Shown: piece by piece, positions 21,384 through 27,809 of the stretch
Numbering within the stretch: position 1 is the first letter of the stretch
Layout: each line of letters opens with the position of its first letter
Origin: a virus
Virus record (IMG/VR): IMGVR_UViG_3300029825_000007
Location: 1,374-65,373 of that record
Length of the DNA stretch: 64,000 bases
Strand: one strand, 5' to 3'
Made by a program: the position numbers and the translations under genes
Notes under the pieces: model-generated
Seen by the model: only the letters and a program-made list of their open reading frames with translations
Database searches by the model: none
What the model was told of the DNA's origin: nothing

Positions 21384-23093
21384 CTAGAATGGTGAATGCA
21401 TAATTGTAGTCTTGACTGTGAAACCGCCCTCTATGAACCGCTCAAGCTGTACCAGACCATCAGGAGAATCATCATGTTCATTCTTGCCAATCTGAACAAA
21501 CATGCACAACTCATCTACAGCCTTGTTGTATTCGTCAGTACGCATATAACGTTTTGTTTCTTGATCATCTTTTCTCTTTAATCTCTGTAATTCATAATTC
21601 GCTTTCAAGAAAATAAATCTCCGTTTGATATCACCAGAATACTGAATGATTTTTGCCATCTTAGCCATAGTGTTTGGGGCTTTTGTACTTGTCACACTGC
21701 ACTTGTATCCATCTTGTTCCAAAAGCTCATCTATCTTATCAGCGTACATATTACCGCCGTTATTAGCTTCAAAATTGATCTGCTGAATTTCATATTCTTT
21801 TATTTTACCTGCGACTAATGGTAGAGTAGTTTCTTTCGGTCCTGCATTGAATATCCAATCAACGATGTAAACGTCACCGTTCTCGTATTCAAACCCAATA
21901 GGCATGGACAATGAATCACCACCACCCCACGCCACATCACACGCACTTACAGCCCTCACAAATCCACTTTCTGGTAATACACCATTAAAGAATCGTAAAT
22001 CATCTTCTGGGAATAACAATCCTTCTCTTACGAATGGTCTCTGCTGGTATTTTGCCATCCATTCATTTTTATCAAGTCGGTCTCTCATATCCAGATAATA
22101 TTTTGTTGAGAATCCGCAGCCATACATATAATCAAAATTTGATTCATCATTTTCATTTAATGCAGGGATTTTTCTAAACCGGTAATTTTTATCATTCTTA
22201 TGCTCTTTTTCAACACGGCCTAATGGGTCTATGACATTCCATCTTGTACCGACCATTAATTCCCTGGCTCCATCTTTTTTACGGTCTACAAGGATATTTA
22301 AATAGTCCTGATACCTATTCTCTAATCGCCTAGGGTTTAAAGATTCTTCACGGTCACGGACTAAATCATCCACATACAAATATCCATCAGGTGATATATC
22401 TACAGCACCTGTCCATGTTCCTTCAATTCCTCGACAAGTCAGAGTTGCAAATCTATCAGGGTCACCCAATGTGATTTCTTTCTTTTCTGCTGATTTATTT
22501 GTAATGTTTCCGACTTCTGGAAATATTTCATGAAACGTGTATTCCTCTGTATTAATCAAATTAAGCATTTCACCGTAAAATCCATCCGCTAATATTCCGG
22601 AGTGTCCGGACATAGCATTGTGGCTGTTAGGACGCTTGCCCAGTATCCATGATAAGAAAAATATACACAGAGTGCTCTTGCCCACGCGGCTTGCAAGAGA
22701 CAATCCATAGAACTCAATTGCCCTATCTTCCAAGTCCTGCAAATCATTTACAACTGTCTTTAATGTTTTCTGTCTCGGCAAGTAAAATCTCTTTCTGGGA
22801 TCTCTGTTCTTCTCCATGTAAATCAAGTATGATTCAAATTTATCCCTTGATTCGAACAGCAAACACTGATAATACAGATCAAGAAACTTTTGGTCTTTTG
22901 TATCACTTGTCAATCTAACAGCCCATTGTTTTACAAAACCAGATACCTTATAGCAATATTCTTTTTCGTTCGGATAATCTTGTTTCATGTACTGTGCAGA
23001 TGATAATAATGCAAGCAGCACTTTATATTCTGGTCTCGTTCCTAATCGCTGTTTTAACGCATTTATCCTTTTTTGATGCTCAATTAACTGCAT
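21384..23093 (-). CDS. terL: terminase large subunit
   Basis: 569 aa. It has a Walker A-like motif (SRVGKST), an acidic Walker B-type motif (LYVDDLV), and the size and position of a terminase with a nuclease C-domain. Confidence 0.8.
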   Translation of the reverse strand: MQLIEHQKRINALKQRLGTRPEYKVLLALLSSAQYMKQDYPNEKEYCYKVSGFVKQWAVRLTSDTKDQKFLDLYYQCLLFESRDKFESYLIYMEKNRDPRKRFYLPRQKTLKTVVNDLQDLEDRAIEFYGLSLASRVGKSTLCIFFLSWILGKRPNSHNAMSGHSGILADGFYGEMLNLINTEEYTFHEIFPEVGNITNKSAEKKEITLGDPDRFATLTCRGIEGTWTGAVDISPDGYLYVDDLVRDREESLNPRRLENRYQDYLNILVDRKKDGARELMVGTRWNVIDPLGRVEKEHKNDKNYRFRKIPALNENDESNFDYMYGCGFSTKYYLDMRDRLDKNEWMAKYQQRPFVREGLLFPEDDLRFFNGVLPESGFVRAVSACDVAWGGGDSLSMPIGFEYENGDVYIVDWIFNAGPKETTLPLVAGKIKEYEIQQINFEANNGGNMYADKIDELLEQDGYKCSVTSTKAPNTMAKMAKIIQYSGDIKRRFIFLKANYELQRLKRKDDQETKRYMRTDEYNKAVDELCMFVQIGKNEHDDSPDGLVQLERFIEGGFTVKTTIMHSPF

Positions 23094-23347: not shown

Positions 23348-23515
23348 CTATCCTTTTATCATACTATCAATTGAATCAAGCATTATTGACCATGCCAGAC
23401 AAGCTGTAGAACTACGATATATTCCTTTGAAATAATAATAACATCCTAATATTAGCGCAATTGTGCTTGATACAGTAAGTATTATTTTTATAGTATATTT
23501 TATAACATCTTTCAT
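23348..23515 (-). CDS. small membrane protein
   Basis: AGAGGAG RBS upstream of the ATG at 23515 (MKDVIKYTIKIILTVSSTIALILGCYYYF...). Two hydrophobic segments. Confidence 0.4.
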   Translation of the reverse strand: MKDVIKYTIKIILTVSSTIALILGCYYYFKGIYRSSTACLAWSIMLDSIDSMIKG

Positions 23516-23516
23516 C

Positions 23517-23711
23517 TCACATCTCCTCTGCATTACTCCATGATCGTTCTGGAATACATACATTAAACTCTTTCTTGCAATTACTTCCTTTACATTTTAG
23601 AGATAAATTATGTATAACAGTTTTACTATTAATTTTTAGATTCTTTTTTCCACAATATGGACATGTAACCCATTCTTCTTCATTTTCATCAAACTGAATT
23701 CTGCCTAACAT
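23517..23711 (-). CDS. zinc-ribbon protein
   Basis: It has CPYCGKK...C..SNC cysteine pairs. 64 aa. Confidence 0.4.
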   Translation of the reverse strand: MLGRIQFDENEEEWVTCPYCGKKNLKINSKTVIHNLSLKCKGSNCKKEFNVCIPERSWSNAEEM

Positions 23712-23769
23712 CAGATTATCTCCAATCTATAATTGCATTTTGTATACATTAAATATTAAAAAATAAAAA

Positions 23770-23862
23770 TCAGACTGGCAAGATTCGAACTTGCATCTTA
23801 GAGAATATAAGGAGTGGAAGATTGAAAATTCTCTACGCTTTTCCTAATTAAGCTACATTCTG
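23770..23862 (-). tRNA. tRNA-like module 1 with an expanded anticodon arm
   Basis: The minus strand reads CAGAATG-TA-GCTT-AATTAGGA-AAGC-G-TAGAG(AAT)...(ATT)CTCTA-AGAT-GCAAG-TTCGAAT-CTTGC-CAGTCTG-A. The acceptor, D and T arms are canonical, but the anticodon position holds an 8-bp stem with a 21-nt loop. Confidence 0.55.
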
Positions 23863-23951
23863 TTAGTGACGGGAACGTTTCTCAGGGTTGTTCTTTAACC
23901 GCCACTGTTGCAGTTCATTTGTATTTCCCACCAACCACAACAAAGGGATAA

Positions 23952-24023
23952 CTGAGATAGTTGGACTCGAACCAACAACTTCCTGATTAACGGCCAGGCG
24001 TTCTACCATTGGACTATATCTCA
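23952..24023 (-). tRNA. tRNA-Asn(GUU)-like
   Basis: TGAGATA-TA-GTCC-AATGGTA-GAAC-G-CCTGG-CCGTTAA-TCAGG-AAGTT-GTTGG-TTCGAGT-CCAAC-TATCTCA-G. 72 nt, no encoded CCA, position 33 is C instead of U, and there is one D-stem mismatch. Confidence 0.65.
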
Positions 24024-24026
24024 TTA

Positions 24027-24565
24027 TTACAAACATGATTAACGTTTCCGCTTATTCCCTATAGATTCAATCATATTCGATCACAGTGATGACAAGTCTG
24101 AACTTTCGGGAGCTACCCTAGGCTTCTTGCCACGGTCGAGCACTGGGAGGATTGACTACCTCCAAATTTCACGCATCATTCAGATTATATGTTTTCCATC
24201 ATATGGTATTTGCTGATTGCGCTACTTTAACATTCCGACTTGTGTTATACTCGCATTTCTGCGATTCACAGCAAAAATAATGGCTTATTGGAAATTCCTG
24301 TCTAGTCCGTAGTCTTCCGCACCACTCACATCAACAGGTTATTCTTCCACAGGAAGCGTCTATTGTGCCACCCACAAGGGAACTATCTTTGATTACTCTA
24401 TAATGATACACTGCATGATTTTGTTGTCGGATTCCCGGCTTCTGTCTGACATTCGCATATCAGTCAAAGAATCATCAAGCAAGTATCCCAACTTGACTTT
24501 TCTCAATTCCATACATCTCGGAGTGGATGTTACCCATTTATGCACCGAGGTAATCATGTTTGTAA
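24027..24565 (-). ncRNA. large structured RNA domain (ROOL/GOLLD-class candidate)
   Basis: There is no credible ORF, and the region is visibly more G+C-rich than its flanks. 24027-24041 (TTACAAACATGATTA) is perfectly complementary to 24551-24565 and closes a domain of about 540 nt. Local hairpins lie at 24146-24163, 24251-24264, 24344-24356 and 24517-24549. The domain is flanked on both sides by tRNA(-like) genes. Confidence 0.5.
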
Positions 24566-24660
24566 AAAGAACAGTAGGGTTTGAACCTACAACTCACTGC
24601 GACTTACATTTATCAACCGATATGCACAGTGTGTCTAACTCCTCTATGAGTTATGTTCCT
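24566..24660 (-). tRNA. tRNA-like module 2 (non-canonical core)
   Basis: It has a 7-bp acceptor stem (AGGAACA/TGTTCTT, one G-U) and a canonical T arm (GTAGG-TTCAAAC-CCTAC). The D position holds a 6-bp stem (TAACTC/GAGTTA). The anticodon position holds a CACTG/CAGTG stem enclosing 27 nt, which includes a TATC-GGTT-GATA hairpin. Confidence 0.45.
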
Positions 24661-24929
24661 TTGATTCCGGGCTATGTGGATTTTATATCGCTGCTTGCGG
24701 GATGAATAGTTACGCTGATGCAACGCCCGGATATTGTATCAGAAATTCCTACCGGACCTTGTGACGGTCCTTTAATCAGCATTCCGCTAGTAGGGAAAGG
24801 AGGTCTTCTAAATGAACACCGCATAATCTATCACTGCAATTCACGGTATGTAGAAACTAGAAGATGTGAATGTGATAGAAAGTAGTGAGTAGTGGAATTG
24901 CACCACCTTTAACTACGTCTCACTAAAAT
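24661..24929 (-). ncRNA. further structured non-coding segment contiguous with the RNA locus
   Basis: No ORF is present. Helices include CCGGGC (24668-24673)/GCCCGG (24725-24730), the GGACC-TTGTGAC-GGTCC hairpin (24764-24780), and GTGAG..TAG..TGG-AATTGCA-CCA..CTA..CTCAC (24886-24923). Confidence 0.35.
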
Positions 24930-25091
24930 TTAAATCCAGATTAGAATTGAGTTTATAAAAAACATTGTCATTATTCCTGACATAACTCTTTGTGTATCAC
25001 CTGCGGCACCACGATTTCCTGATGATATTAGAGCCATAAGGAATATATTTAACGCTGTTATTATTGCTTTTATTGGAATTAGAATCATCAT
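24930..25091 (-). CDS. small hydrophobic peptide (53 aa) coupled to the serine recombinase
   Basis: Its ATG overlaps the recombinase stop (TAATG). Translation: MMILIPIKAIITALNIFLMALISSGNRGAAGDTQRVMSGIMTMFFINSILIWI. It is not in the ORF track. Confidence 0.4.
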   Translation of the reverse strand: MMILIPIKAIITALNIFLMALISSGNRGAAGDTQRVMSGIMTMFFINSILIWI

Positions 25092-25651
25092 TATATTAAA
25101 CTCTCTTCTCTTAATTTCCTGTCTAATGTTGACCTTGTTATGCCTAATTTTTTGGCAAGCAATGTCTTTGTCATATGCCCATTTTTATAAGCTTCATATC
25201 CTGACTTTAAATCATCAATGCTTATATCTTTAAATCTTCCATTATACTTTCCACTGGATTTTGCAATCTCAATTCCTTCGCGCTGTCGTTCCAACATGTT
25301 TACACGTTCAAATTCATTAATCGCACCAATCATTGTAAGCATTAATTTTCCAGTAGCCGTTGATGTATCAATGTTTTCCTTGTTGCTTACCAGATGAATG
25401 CCACGATTATTCAATGTTTCAACAATATCAAGTAAATCTTTTGTGCTTCTCGCAAGTCTTGAAAAATCATGAATATAAATCACATCACCAGGTTCTGATT
25501 CTTCCATCATTTTCTTAAACTCTGGTCTATCTGTGTTCTTACCTGATATTTTTTCTTGATACCAAACATCAATATTATGTTGCTCTAATTCTTTAATCTG
25601 TCTCGCTTCATTCTGCTCTATCGTTGATACTCTTACGTATGCTCTGTTCAT
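25091..25651 (-). CDS. small serine recombinase (resolvase/invertase family)
   Basis: 186 aa. The N-terminus AYVRVSTIEQN carries the catalytic Ser. It also has the ..DRPEF.. and ..SRLARS.. motifs and a C-terminal HTH (KTLLAKKLGITRSTLDRKL). Confidence 0.85.
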   Translation of the reverse strand: MNRAYVRVSTIEQNEARQIKELEQHNIDVWYQEKISGKNTDRPEFKKMMEESEPGDVIYIHDFSRLARSTKDLLDIVETLNNRGIHLVSNKENIDTSTATGKLMLTMIGAINEFERVNMLERQREGIEIAKSSGKYNGRFKDISIDDLKSGYEAYKNGHMTKTLLAKKLGITRSTLDRKLREESLI

Positions 25652-25781
25652 AGCTGTTCCCCTCTTTTTTGTGATCTATAGGTATTATATCTTATAGGTC
25701 GTAATATGTCAAGATGTTATTGCTTATAAATAGTAATTATGTTAAAATAACAATCAGCACCATAGGAGGTGGCTATATTAC

Positions 25782-25982
25782 ATGAGAATACGATTAAAAC
25801 AAATTCTTGATCAACAGGGGAAAACACGGAACTGGTTATCTGTTCAAACTGGCATCAGCTACAATGCTATCCATCAATTATACGAGGAACGGACAACCAA
25901 AGTTGAGTTTGATACTATTGAGAAAATATGCAAGGCACTTCAATGTACACCAAACGATATTTTTGAATTAGAGGACAATTAA
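25782..25982 (+). CDS. XRE-family HTH protein
   Basis: MRIRLKQILDQQGKTRNWLSVQTGISYNAIHQLYE.. is a Cro/C1-type HTH. The gene is divergent from the serine recombinase. Confidence 0.7.
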   Translation: MRIRLKQILDQQGKTRNWLSVQTGISYNAIHQLYEERTTKVEFDTIEKICKALQCTPNDIFELEDN

Positions 25983-26415: not shown

Positions 26416-26685
26416 TTACTCCTTATCCGGGACATGCTTATTCTCCCACTTTTTATATGCATCAATATAAGTTTCATGTTTATCGCCATTATATGTAACC
26501 TCATAGTACATACCGTCGCTTATTGTAGTGCTTAATAATGCTTTCCAGTTCTGTAGAGTTTTACAGAACCAAACAACAAATACATCATCAGTATCTAATT
26601 CAAAATTGTCTGTCCGGTCACAACGGCCATTAAAATAGTCAATAACCAGACCTTTTGCTTTGTCTAACATGTCATCACTATGCAT
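26416..26685 (-). CDS. hypothetical protein
   Basis: 89-aa ORF tightly packed with its neighbours. Confidence 0.4.
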   Translation of the reverse strand: MHSDDMLDKAKGLVIDYFNGRCDRTDNFELDTDDVFVVWFCKTLQNWKALLSTTISDGMYYEVTYNGDKHETYIDAYKKWENKHVPDKE

Positions 26686-27206: not shown

Positions 27207-27809
27207 TTAAAAATCCGGCTCAATATCGCTGTCCTTGCTCTTATCCTGTGCAATTTCTGCGATCTCTTGATCGGACAACTGCGGTTGCTGTGCATTGCTA
27301 ACCTCTATGCGCTGTGGTGTCTCTACCCATCCGTAGTTAGCTTTTAGGGCAAATATACATCCGATACTGTTTTTTTCGGTCGCTCCATCTGCTAGGCTGG
27401 ACTCGCATTCGCGTTGCCATTTTCTGACCGTTCGAGAGTGTTCTGACTGGGTTCCTTGCCCGTTTGACCGATATTCTCCGGTTGCCCATGTGGTAAAAGT
27501 ATCGTTGCTAATCCCCACTAAAAGACTAAAGTTAAGTAGTGTAGGTCTTTTACCAAATGAATAACACATATCTGTATATATATCCCATATATTATCTAAC
27601 AATTTAATATTACTAGTATCTATTTTGTTATATTTAAACACATGTCTATATATATACTTACACATACCAGTAAATAAAGAACCATTATTATATATATCAT
27701 CTCTATCTCTTAAAGTATCTCTATACTCATCACTGTACTGTATTATTTTATTATTATATATCTCTATTGTATTACCATTATTATCTTTAGACTTTATTGT
27801 ATTAGACAT
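27207..27809 (-). CDS. terS: terminase small subunit
   Basis: 200 aa. The central region (PTLLNFSLLVGISNDTFTTW....SRTVRKWQRECESSLADGA..NSIGCIFALKANYGW) matches the HTH/oligomerisation pattern of Firmicutes phage small terminases. The 5' third is extremely AT-rich. Confidence 0.6.
   Translation of the reverse strand: MSNTIKSKDNNGNTIEIYNNKIIQYSDEYRDTLRDRDDIYNNGSLFTGMCKYIYRHVFKYNKIDTSNIKLLDNIWDIYTDMCYSFGKRPTLLNFSLLVGISNDTFTTWATGEYRSNGQGTQSEHSRTVRKWQRECESSLADGATEKNSIGCIFALKANYGWVETPQRIEVSNAQQPQLSDQEIAEIAQDKSKDSDIEPDF

Follow-up and report, generated by a model that had tools for sequence, protein, structure and literature searches.

A phage ROOL RNA lying flush between tRNA and tRNA-like units, with ends proposed to arise from tRNA processing

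Introduction

ROOL RNAs are among the very few natural RNAs known to form a closed cage unaided. The class has an average length of 581 nucleotides (nt) (PMC5737381), and cages have been documented for ROOL from env-120, E. faecalis and L. salivarius (PMC12286853; PMC12990946). GOLLD RNA (RF01998) is likewise large and ornate, forms cages and occurs in phage and prophage genomes within transfer RNA (tRNA) arrays (PMC12286853). Here, we describe a ROOL gene in a 64,000-nt stretch of viral DNA (hereafter “the window”; positions 1,374 to 65,373 of IMG/VR record IMGVR_UViG_3300029825_000007). The gene lies on the minus strand between a pseudo-tRNA and a canonical tRNA, and we propose that tRNA-maturation enzymes acting on these neighbors generate its ends.

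ROOL and GOLLD have been described as lying near or within tRNA arrays and perhaps being co-transcribed with them, and nothing further has been said of the association (PMC5737381; PMC12286853; PMC12990946). In L. salivarius, the ROOL promoter maps 225-450 nt ahead of the mature 5′ end, and the RNA is thus released from a longer precursor (PMC5643018). In a literature search, we found no paper tying ROOL ends to RNase P or RNase Z. Elsewhere, tRNAs punctuate mitochondrial polycistronic transcripts, and tRNA-like structures act as processing handles in MALAT1/mascRNA.

Results and Discussion

A full-length ROOL gene

A scan of the whole window against Rfam at gathering thresholds returned three matches, one to ROOL and two to tRNA, each on the minus strand. 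The ROOL match (RF03087; 24022..24573, 552 nt by the Rfam limits) scores 345.5 bits, 3.5 times the gathering score of 99.1, and covers model positions 1-574 of 574 without truncation (E ~1e-80). An initial annotation, made from the bare sequence, had suggested an RNA of the ROOL/GOLLD class or, failing that, a new large RNA, and had proposed such a covariance-model search; the outcome is ROOL, on the minus strand beside tRNAs. What could speak for GOLLD or a new class is the shared genomic setting alone, namely a phage or prophage with tRNAs nearby. The GOLLD covariance model gave no match in 23500-25200 at its gathering score or at E ≤ 10, no other large-RNA family matched at E ≤ 10 with permissive filters, leaving ROOL as the sole match, and a permissive Rfam re-scan of 23500-25200 (E ≤ 10) returned nothing further credible. 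We therefore regard GOLLD or a new class as refuted: the locus is a further member of the known ROOL class. GOLLD also differs in that it can hold tRNAs in its linker, whereas the tRNAs of the window lie outside the closing helix.

The locus around this gene (23712-24929) has no large coding capacity. Only short open reading frames (ORFs) of at most 100 amino acids (aa) occur on either strand, and none of six internal ORFs tested has a Pfam match at E ≤ 0.1, so we dropped a protein-coding reading. The G+C content is 0.37-0.44 within the locus against 0.27-0.34 in its flanks. Both observations agree with the initial annotation, which had reported a G+C-rich non-coding locus of about 1.2 kb.

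The ROOL closing helix P1 pairs a 5′ strand at 24551..24565 with its exact 15-base-pair (bp) complement at 24027..24041, and can be extended to 18 bp with one mismatch (24024-24041 / 24551-24568; 94% complementarity). The predicted mature RNA thus spans approximately 24024-24565, or 542 nt, within the class size of about 500-660 nt. This helix had been noticed in the initial annotation without its identity as P1, and the four hairpins listed there (24146-24163, 24251-24264, 24344-24356 and 24517-24549) fold as described, all within ROOL consensus stems.

We aligned the window copy with 15 homologues, each from a locus upstream of a related terminase gene. Across these 16 sequences, RNAalifold predicts 145 pairs, 44 of which show compensatory double changes; P1 is retained, its pairs being kept via G-C/G-U exchanges and two double changes. 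This is the comparative alignment that the initial annotation had proposed, with particular attention to the closing helix. In 50 other ROOL loci, a complementary P1 of 8-33 bp closes the RNA with unrelated sequences. Because of this covariation and the maintenance of P1 by unrelated sequence, the family assignment is secure.

The window copy contains the conserved ROOL core (ACAAUAGACG... and UCUGAAUGAUG.GUGAAA) and shares with the class, including the members solved by cryo-electron microscopy (env-120, E. faecalis and L. salivarius), a full-length match, a size near 550 nt and P1. Its setting is also that of the class: a phage tRNA array on the same strand, with TerL, TerS-like and SPP1-type portal genes as neighbors. 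It differs in its short variable “linker” (16 model positions deleted), in being flanked on one side by a pseudo-tRNA instead of a tRNA, and in having no close sequence relative (best nhmmer score 187 bits, among the 15 syntenic relatives; no match among GenBank phages). In a distant blastn comparison of the whole locus with GenBank phages (INPHARED), the tRNA-Asn alone matched.

Relatives came from two kinds of search. Searching IMG/VR twice for exact matches to conserved ROOL core sequences gave 53 loci; the four phage loci tested among them have ROOL scores of 347-363 bits. A terminase-based scan yielded the 15 syntenic relatives, with TerL 57-58% identical to that of the window and ROOL aligning to the window copy at 155-187 nhmmer bits. 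The best relative in the genome scan by terminase (locus L113, 75%) has no ROOL and carries a three-way-junction motif and a leader hairpin, both described below; the best in the metagenome scan (78%) is a contig that lacks the upstream region.

tRNA and tRNA-like units on both sides of ROOL

The initial annotation had placed a tRNA-Asn-like gene and two tRNA-like cloverleaves in the locus, interleaved with or embedded in the large RNA. We find that these modules instead flank ROOL and abut its ends. The tRNA-Asn(GUU) at 23952..24023 (minus strand) is canonical, is called by ARAGORN, matches the Rfam tRNA model at 62.4 bits and follows directly on the extended ROOL P1. The two cloverleaves fared differently: one was found by both tools, and the other by neither, its fold being cloverleaf-like all the same.

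The detected unit, tRNA-like 1 (23770..23862, minus strand; Rfam tRNA, 47.3 bits), is of the tRNA-Ile(UAU) type and has 27 nt in the anticodon-loop position. It aligns with a tRNA-Ile(UAU) at the same position in relatives, except where 18 nt (23812-23829) have been inserted into the anticodon loop on its 5′ side; the loop remnant CUUAUAU lies at 23805-23811. A stem now runs over the anticodon, the canonical 7-nt anticodon loop is absent, and by its sequence the unit would be unable to decode in its present form. ARAGORN describes it as a Glu(UUC) tRNA with an intron. This call is not credible, because to our knowledge bacteria have no pathway for splicing short tRNA introns of this kind.

The undetected unit, pseudo-tRNA 2 (24566..24660, minus strand), abuts the ROOL 5′ end and is recognized by its fold and position; ARAGORN made no call, and Rfam gave no tRNA match at E ≤ 10. 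It has a 7-bp acceptor stem (24654-24660 / 24567-24573; AGGAACA/UGUUCUU), a discriminator at 24566 and a canonical T arm at 24574-24590 (GUAGG UUCAAAC CCUAC). Its D-like hairpin (24637-24652) has the loop AUAGAG rather than a D loop with GG, and a 45-nt arm (24591-24635; 5-bp stem, 27-nt loop) replaces the 17-nt anticodon arm. Neither pseudo-tRNA 2 nor the tRNA-Asn encodes CCA.

At the position of pseudo-tRNA 2, the unit varies among the 15 syntenic relatives: tRNA-Trp(CCA) in L080, L086 and L090, tRNA-Gly(CCC) in L081 and a different tRNA-like unit in L059 and L063. Most of the remaining relatives have a tRNA that escapes ARAGORN and whose anticodon loop is 15 nt long. Changes in the acceptor 3′ strand of this last tRNA are mostly wobble-compatible. 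Folding z-scores of the flanking pieces are modest (-0.3 to -2.6), and we therefore argue for structure there from comparative data rather than from folding energy.

In both pseudo-tRNAs of the window (24591-24635 and 23805-23831, minus strand), a 5-bp stem closes a loop of exactly 27 nt (7 + 20) at the anticodon position. The two loops have no sequence similarity to one another, and their equal length may reflect coincidence or a common process.

A further, weakly supported tRNA remnant, read from sequence and fold, lies at 24883..24925 (minus strand). It combines a 6-7-bp outer stem (UAGUGAG/CUCACUA) with a T-arm-like hairpin (loop UGCAAUU) and 12 unpaired nt that resemble the start of a D arm, and the middle of a tRNA is missing. 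We found no homologue of it.

Flush junctions between ROOL and its neighbors

At the 5′ junction of the window, the acceptor 3′ strand of pseudo-tRNA 2 occupies 24573-24567 and the discriminator 24566, and P1 starts at 24565 (24568 when extended). At the 3′ junction, the last position of P1 is 24027 for the 15-bp helix and 24024 for its extended form, with tRNA-Asn beginning at 24023. Each of the 15 terminase-syntenic relatives has a tRNA or tRNA-like unit whose T arm and acceptor 3′ strand stop 2-4 nt short of P1.

We extended this comparison to a census of 51 ROOL loci, the window included, in which P1 was set by complementarity near the ends extrapolated from nhmmer matches and tRNAs were called with ARAGORN; an ARAGORN-negative unit was counted as tRNA-like if it had a T arm and at least 6 of 7 acceptor pairs. 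On the 5′ side, a same-strand ARAGORN tRNA ends 0-2 nt from the P1 start in 14 of the 51 loci, rising to 23 of 51 when tRNA-like units are included. On the 3′ side, a same-strand tRNA begins within 12 nt of the P1 end in 30 of 51, typically at 3-10 nt, and the species involved include Arg(CCU), Met, Pro, Gln, Ala and Asn.

Among the 5′ additions is a tRNA-Trp(CCA) with a one-nt bulge in its acceptor stem and an encoded GCCA, which abuts ROOL directly in L008, L014, L016, L023, L032, L033, L038 and L039 and sits about 95 nt upstream of ROOL P1. Since ARAGORN misses it, standard annotation undercounts the tRNAs that flank ROOL.

Proposed maturation of ROOL by tRNA punctuation

The identity and fold of this RNA, and its flush abutment with tRNA or tRNA-like units here and in many other loci, are observed. 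From the flush geometry, we infer tRNA punctuation, and we consider it likely that this phage tRNA array carries a ROOL gene whose ends come from RNase Z and RNase P processing of the array transcript. The array would be transcribed as a single precursor, possibly from a consensus promoter at 25684-25712, and cut by the tRNA-maturation enzymes of the host. RNase Z would cleave after the discriminator of pseudo-tRNA 2, which encodes no CCA, to give a ROOL 5′ end at about 24565. CCA-less tRNA precursors are reportedly the RNase Z substrate class in Bacillus subtilis, a result we attribute to Pellegrini and colleagues in 2003. RNase P would cleave at the 5′ end of tRNA-Asn to give a 3′ end at about 24024. 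About 542 nt long, the released RNA would have its 5′ and 3′ ends locked in P1. By analogy with the solved members, the released ROOL would then assemble into an RNA-only hexameric or octameric cage. Of these steps, co-transcription, the two cleavages and cage assembly are predictions.

A recurring asymmetry in the tRNA-like units is consistent with this proposal: acceptor and T arms are intact, and anticodon regions are wrecked or expanded, their loops measuring 15 nt in relatives and 27 nt in each pseudo-tRNA of the window. Such a pattern is what selection for nuclease recognition alone would be expected to leave. On this proposal, damaged tRNAs would persist because only the acceptor/T-arm half recognized by the nucleases is still needed; the broken tRNA-like pieces are probably cutting marks, and phages appear to keep otherwise broken tRNAs precisely where processing sites are needed.

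The closest parallels in operation, and in operation only, are mitochondrial punctuation and MALAT1/mascRNA. There too, a non-tRNA RNA lies flush with tRNA or tRNA-like bounds for RNase P and RNase Z, and non-decoding mimics keep the acceptor/T domain as a handle. The present system differs in belonging to a bacterial phage, in that its cleavages are predicted, and in that many ROOL loci lack one or both handles. If the proposal is right, a maturation mechanism would explain why ROOL and GOLLD have long been found associated with tRNA arrays, and there would be a simple way to have cells express ROOL with correct ends. The window copy has unusually clean predicted boundaries, which make the point testable.

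Several observations weigh against this reading. By the census criteria, 28 of 51 loci have no tRNA or tRNA-like unit on the 5′ side and 21 of 51 have none on the 3′ side, and some tRNA-less loci show long P1 helices of 27-33 bp. With so many ROOL loci lacking a flanking tRNA, tRNA punctuation cannot be obligatory for ROOL. The abutment counts themselves are approximate, since the P1 heuristic mis-set some boundaries (e.g., L011 and L015). No tRNA directly follows the ROOL 3′ end in the 15 closest relatives, where other structured sequence intervenes for about 150 nt. Pseudo-tRNA 2 has no alignable homologue, so that its cloverleaf is argued from folding (z = -2.0) and position. Finally, adjacency could be a mere outcome of ROOL insertion into tRNA arrays.

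This last thought leads to an alternative in which ROOL is real and its tRNA neighbors are irrelevant to its ends: the arrays would be strongly transcribed, permissive insertion sites, and the ends would come from a dedicated promoter and terminator, or from other nucleases trimming to a stable P1. The many loci without an abutting tRNA at one or both ends fit it, as do the 27-33-bp P1 helices where no tRNA is near, and the original authors proposed co-transcription only (PMC5737381). We nevertheless think it unlikely. The gaps of 0-2 nt on the 5′ side and 3-10 nt on the 3′ side recur across tRNA species (Thr, Phe, Trp, Ile, Leu and Gly; Arg, Met, Pro, Gln and Asn), a precision that clustering alone would hardly explain; the minus strand has no promoter-like site immediately ahead of P1, and the sole terminator-like call there is the T arm of pseudo-tRNA 2. 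A different alternative accepts ROOL and tRNA-Asn as functional and treats the pseudo-tRNAs and the 24883-24925 remnant as neutral wreckage of a decaying array. We doubt it, while granting it some room: the 18-nt insertion buries the anticodon of tRNA-like 1, both tRNA detectors miss tRNA-like 2 (pseudo-tRNA 2), the folding z-scores of the two units are weak (-0.3 and -2.0), and the remnant has no homologue. Neutral decay sits poorly with acceptor stems and canonical T arms that are intact in both pseudo-tRNAs beside a wrecked anticodon region, with the same asymmetry in relatives (a 15-nt anticodon loop, acceptor and T arms preserved), and with units that are still exactly flush with ROOL and the leader hairpin. 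The concern raised in the initial annotation, that the region might be merely a decayed tRNA array, is thus partly borne out for the flanks, as two of the three tRNA modules are damaged derivatives; it does not extend to ROOL, with its covarying long-range pairing.

A final alternative dispenses with an RNA locus altogether and sees a DNA-level element, either one that the neighboring small serine recombinase uses for recombination or inversion, or one for packaging that lies between terS and terL. The Resolvase/HTH_8 invertase gene immediately upstream (25091-25651) and the position of the locus between a weakly supported TerS-like gene and TerL lend it some color. However, full-length ROOL and tRNA covariance-model matches account for the sequence, and pairs are kept via G-U, which is meaningless in duplex DNA. 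The flanking inverted repeats are short and imperfect (79-92% over 12-19 nt); we found no better candidates for invertase recombination sites and rejected these. We consider a DNA-level element highly improbable.

A three-way-junction motif with an anti-Shine-Dalgarno-like tract

Upstream of pseudo-tRNA 2 in the direction of transcription, at 24748..24803 (minus strand), we identified a three-way-junction RNA motif that is supported by covariation and corresponds to no Rfam 15 family. It begins with a tract resembling an anti-Shine-Dalgarno (anti-SD) sequence, CCUCCUUUC (24795-24803). P1 of the junction pairs 24789-24794 with 24748-24753 (CCUACU/GGUAGG) and encloses P2 (24778-24788; AGC-GGAAU-GCU), J2/3 (24771-24777; GAUUAAA) and P3 (24754-24770; GGACC-GUCACAA-GGUCC).

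By nhmmer, the motif is present in L113, the closest relative by terminase and one devoid of ROOL, as well as in other loci. More than 120 IMG/VR contigs among the matches listed contain its exact core, TAGCGGAATGCTG(N)TTAA, in 44 distinct 62-nt versions. The pattern searched for left out P1 and P3, whose pairing was thus not selected for. In 26 distinct representatives, 94% of cells are paired, compared to 25-41% when the partners are slid; 8 pairs show double changes, and none of 500 shuffles reached the observed score. A covariance model built on the motif (R1) scores the window copy at 75 bits and also finds divergent subfamilies with a different P2 and a longer P3 with a GCGA loop cap. 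It further reveals tandem copies in L055 (3817-3886 and 3903-3972) and a copy in L024 (5899-5972) whose P1 ends 0 nt before ROOL P1, in place of a tRNA. Additional copies lie in L113 (2311-2380) and in L123-L242.

The motif behaves as a unit of tRNA arrays, being always co-oriented with tRNAs and sometimes tandem. Among the matches listed, 419 ARAGORN tRNAs within 1.5 kb of a junction copy lie on the same strand and 0 on the opposite strand, and the motif usually follows tRNA-Gln(UUG) or tRNA-Met by 30-80 nt. On these counts, among other grounds, we rejected an opposite-strand reading of the tract CCUCCUUUC as a Shine-Dalgarno site (GAAAGGAGG) of a small ORF. On that strand, about 33 G-U cells would become A-C mismatches, and no consistent start follows: the supposed ORF has 4 codons in the window, and elsewhere the start reads “ATG TAG” or is absent. 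The core sequences of hammerhead, twister, pistol and hatchet misfit the motif by eye, no Rfam ribozyme matched, and we dropped these identities.

The tract usually accompanies the junction: CTCC occurs within 24 nt upstream of junction P1 in 57 of 74 distinct instances, compared to 2.8% of background windows, and the remaining instances, about a quarter, have a degenerate tract such as CCCCCUUUU or AUCCUUUC. The best versions, ACACCUCCUUUC and GGAUCCUCCUUUC, read like what we take to be the 3′ tail of Bacillota 16S ribosomal RNA (rRNA). An intramolecular partner for the tract (AAAGG of J2/3 or an upstream GGAG) is possible in some variants and inconsistent in others.

Uncultivated phages of gut and fermentation origin commonly carry the motif, which is apparently uncatalogued. 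Rfam 15 has no family over it in the window (E ≤ 10) or in 14 other motif loci (gathering score), and a distant blastn comparison with GenBank phages (INPHARED) gave chance 23-nt matches in Pseudomonas jumbo phages only. Fremin et al. (2023) list 10,006 unnamed candidates, and the motif may be one of them; the covariance models of that study include DNAVirus_6258 (86 nt), from Lachnospiraceae phages and highly expressed. The nearest described feature is the anti-SD mimic in P6 of OLE RNA, which binds bS21 (PMC12054373). Both are copies of the 16S rRNA 3′ tail (CCUCCU) in non-coding RNAs of Bacillota, and the potential pairing of the phage tract with an upstream GGAG in several variants recalls the mimic of an SD/anti-SD duplex. 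The two differ in that fold and size are unrelated and the phage tract is degenerate in about a quarter of instances.

Given its tRNA-like topology, its behavior as an array unit and the L024 arrangement, we favor a role for the junction motif as a processing handle. Alternatively, it could mimic the 16S rRNA 3′ tail and titrate a ribosome-associated factor such as bS21, by analogy with OLE. Taken jointly, we tentatively suggest, with somewhat less than even confidence, a new small class of phage RNA in which a (C)CUCCUUUC tract precedes a three-way junction of about 48 nt, akin to a tRNA without its anticodon arm, that serves as an RNase P/RNase Z handle or a bS21 titrator, alongside ROOL cages matured by tRNA punctuation and degenerate tRNAs acting as pure handles.

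A conserved tRNA leader and other small elements

Between tRNA-Asn and tRNA-like 1 lies a segment (23863..23951, minus strand) that on its conserved sequence is a tRNA leader element. It contains GAACUGCAACAG (23905-23916), a hairpin (23899-23906 / 23865-23872) and CUAA directly before the next tRNA-like gene. The consensus is GAAC(C/U)G(U/C)AACAG, a covarying hairpin and CUAAC, followed at once by a tRNA. The hairpin stems covary, as in GUGGCGG/CCGUCAC, GUGGUUGG/CCAACCAC, GUGAGCAG/CUGCUCAC, AGGUGG/CCACCU and UGAGUGGAC/GUCCGCUCA. The 15 ROOL relatives have this arrangement, as do L113, L056 and, without ROOL, about 24 contigs from the L126 group. The leader is thus seen with and without ROOL nearby, and its sites include L113 (2517-2600), L059/L063, L080/L086/L090 and the L103 group.

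In the 5′ to 3′ direction of the minus strand, the elements of the locus follow in the order tRNA remnant, long hairpin, anti-SD-like tract with three-way junction, hairpin domain, pseudo-tRNA 2, ROOL, tRNA-Asn, conserved leader hairpin and tRNA-like 1. The initial annotation had described 24661-24929 as a further structured stretch of about 270 nt. We find structured elements there, the covarying junction motif among them, as a string of separate small elements that are not part of ROOL and have modest z-scores. The long hairpin (24828-24878, minus strand) has no homologue. A weakly supported hairpin domain between the three-way junction and pseudo-tRNA 2 (24666..24731, minus strand) is closed by UCCGGGC/GCCCGGA, has a fold z-score of -2.6 and shares CCGGGCG with L113; most other loci also have a hairpin after the three-way junction. 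The junction of tRNA-like 2 and ROOL P1 resembles an rrn boxA (UGUUCUUUUUACAA), a likeness that we dropped as it is not conserved in relatives.

Genomic surroundings and recurrence of the locus

The small terminase gene lies on one side of the array and the large terminase gene on the other. The nearest relatives of the phage are in Lachnospiraceae genomes; terminase relatives in reference genomes come from Faecalicatena, Lacrimispora and Acetatifactor. All neighboring genes are on the minus strand. Upstream of the array lie a TerS-like gene (27207-27809; weakly supported by PHROG at E = 6e-5, with no Pfam match), a DUF6275 gene (26416-26685), the small serine recombinase/invertase gene (25091-25651; Resolvase and HTH_8) and, between the latter and the RNA locus, a 53-aa ORF. 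Downstream, a Cys-rich 64-aa ORF (23517-23711) separates the array from TerL (21384-23093), which is followed by a sigma-like/DUF1492 gene and an SPP1-type portal gene.

The candidate promoter for the unit of invertase, small ORF and RNA array (25684-25712, minus strand), called by consensus match upstream of the invertase gene, reads TTGACA-17-TATAAT with 12 of 12 consensus matches. This perfect sigma-70 consensus is the sole strong promoter-like site that could drive the invertase gene, the 53-aa ORF and the entire RNA array. Divergent from the invertase gene is a 66-aa gene of the HTH_26 (Xre) type (25782-25982, plus strand), which is called in all near-identical contigs and whose product may regulate the promoter region near the invertase gene.

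At least 8 independent assemblies, including several from fermentation metagenomes, contain the locus at 99.7% identity or more, with the insertion in tRNA-like 1, so it is no assembly artefact. The phage is carried, for example, by the sources of ERZ724023 and GCA_036741475.1. The near-identical copies, found by exact-protein look-ups, differ by 1-3 single-nucleotide polymorphisms (SNPs), which are too few for covariation tests of the pseudo-tRNAs. Only two SNPs recur among these assemblies, each in three loci of two assemblies: 24798 U>G inside the anti-SD-like tract (CCUCCGUUC) and 24490 U>G inside ROOL.

Rfam also matched three other RNAs in the fetched phage loci, none beside the motifs studied here: a type II hammerhead ribozyme in L131 (5638-5703, plus strand; 59.8 bits), an int-alpA RNA in L125 (921-987, minus strand; 38.6 bits) and the S. 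pyogenes small RNA Spy779816 in L001 (300-389, minus strand; 67.4 bits).

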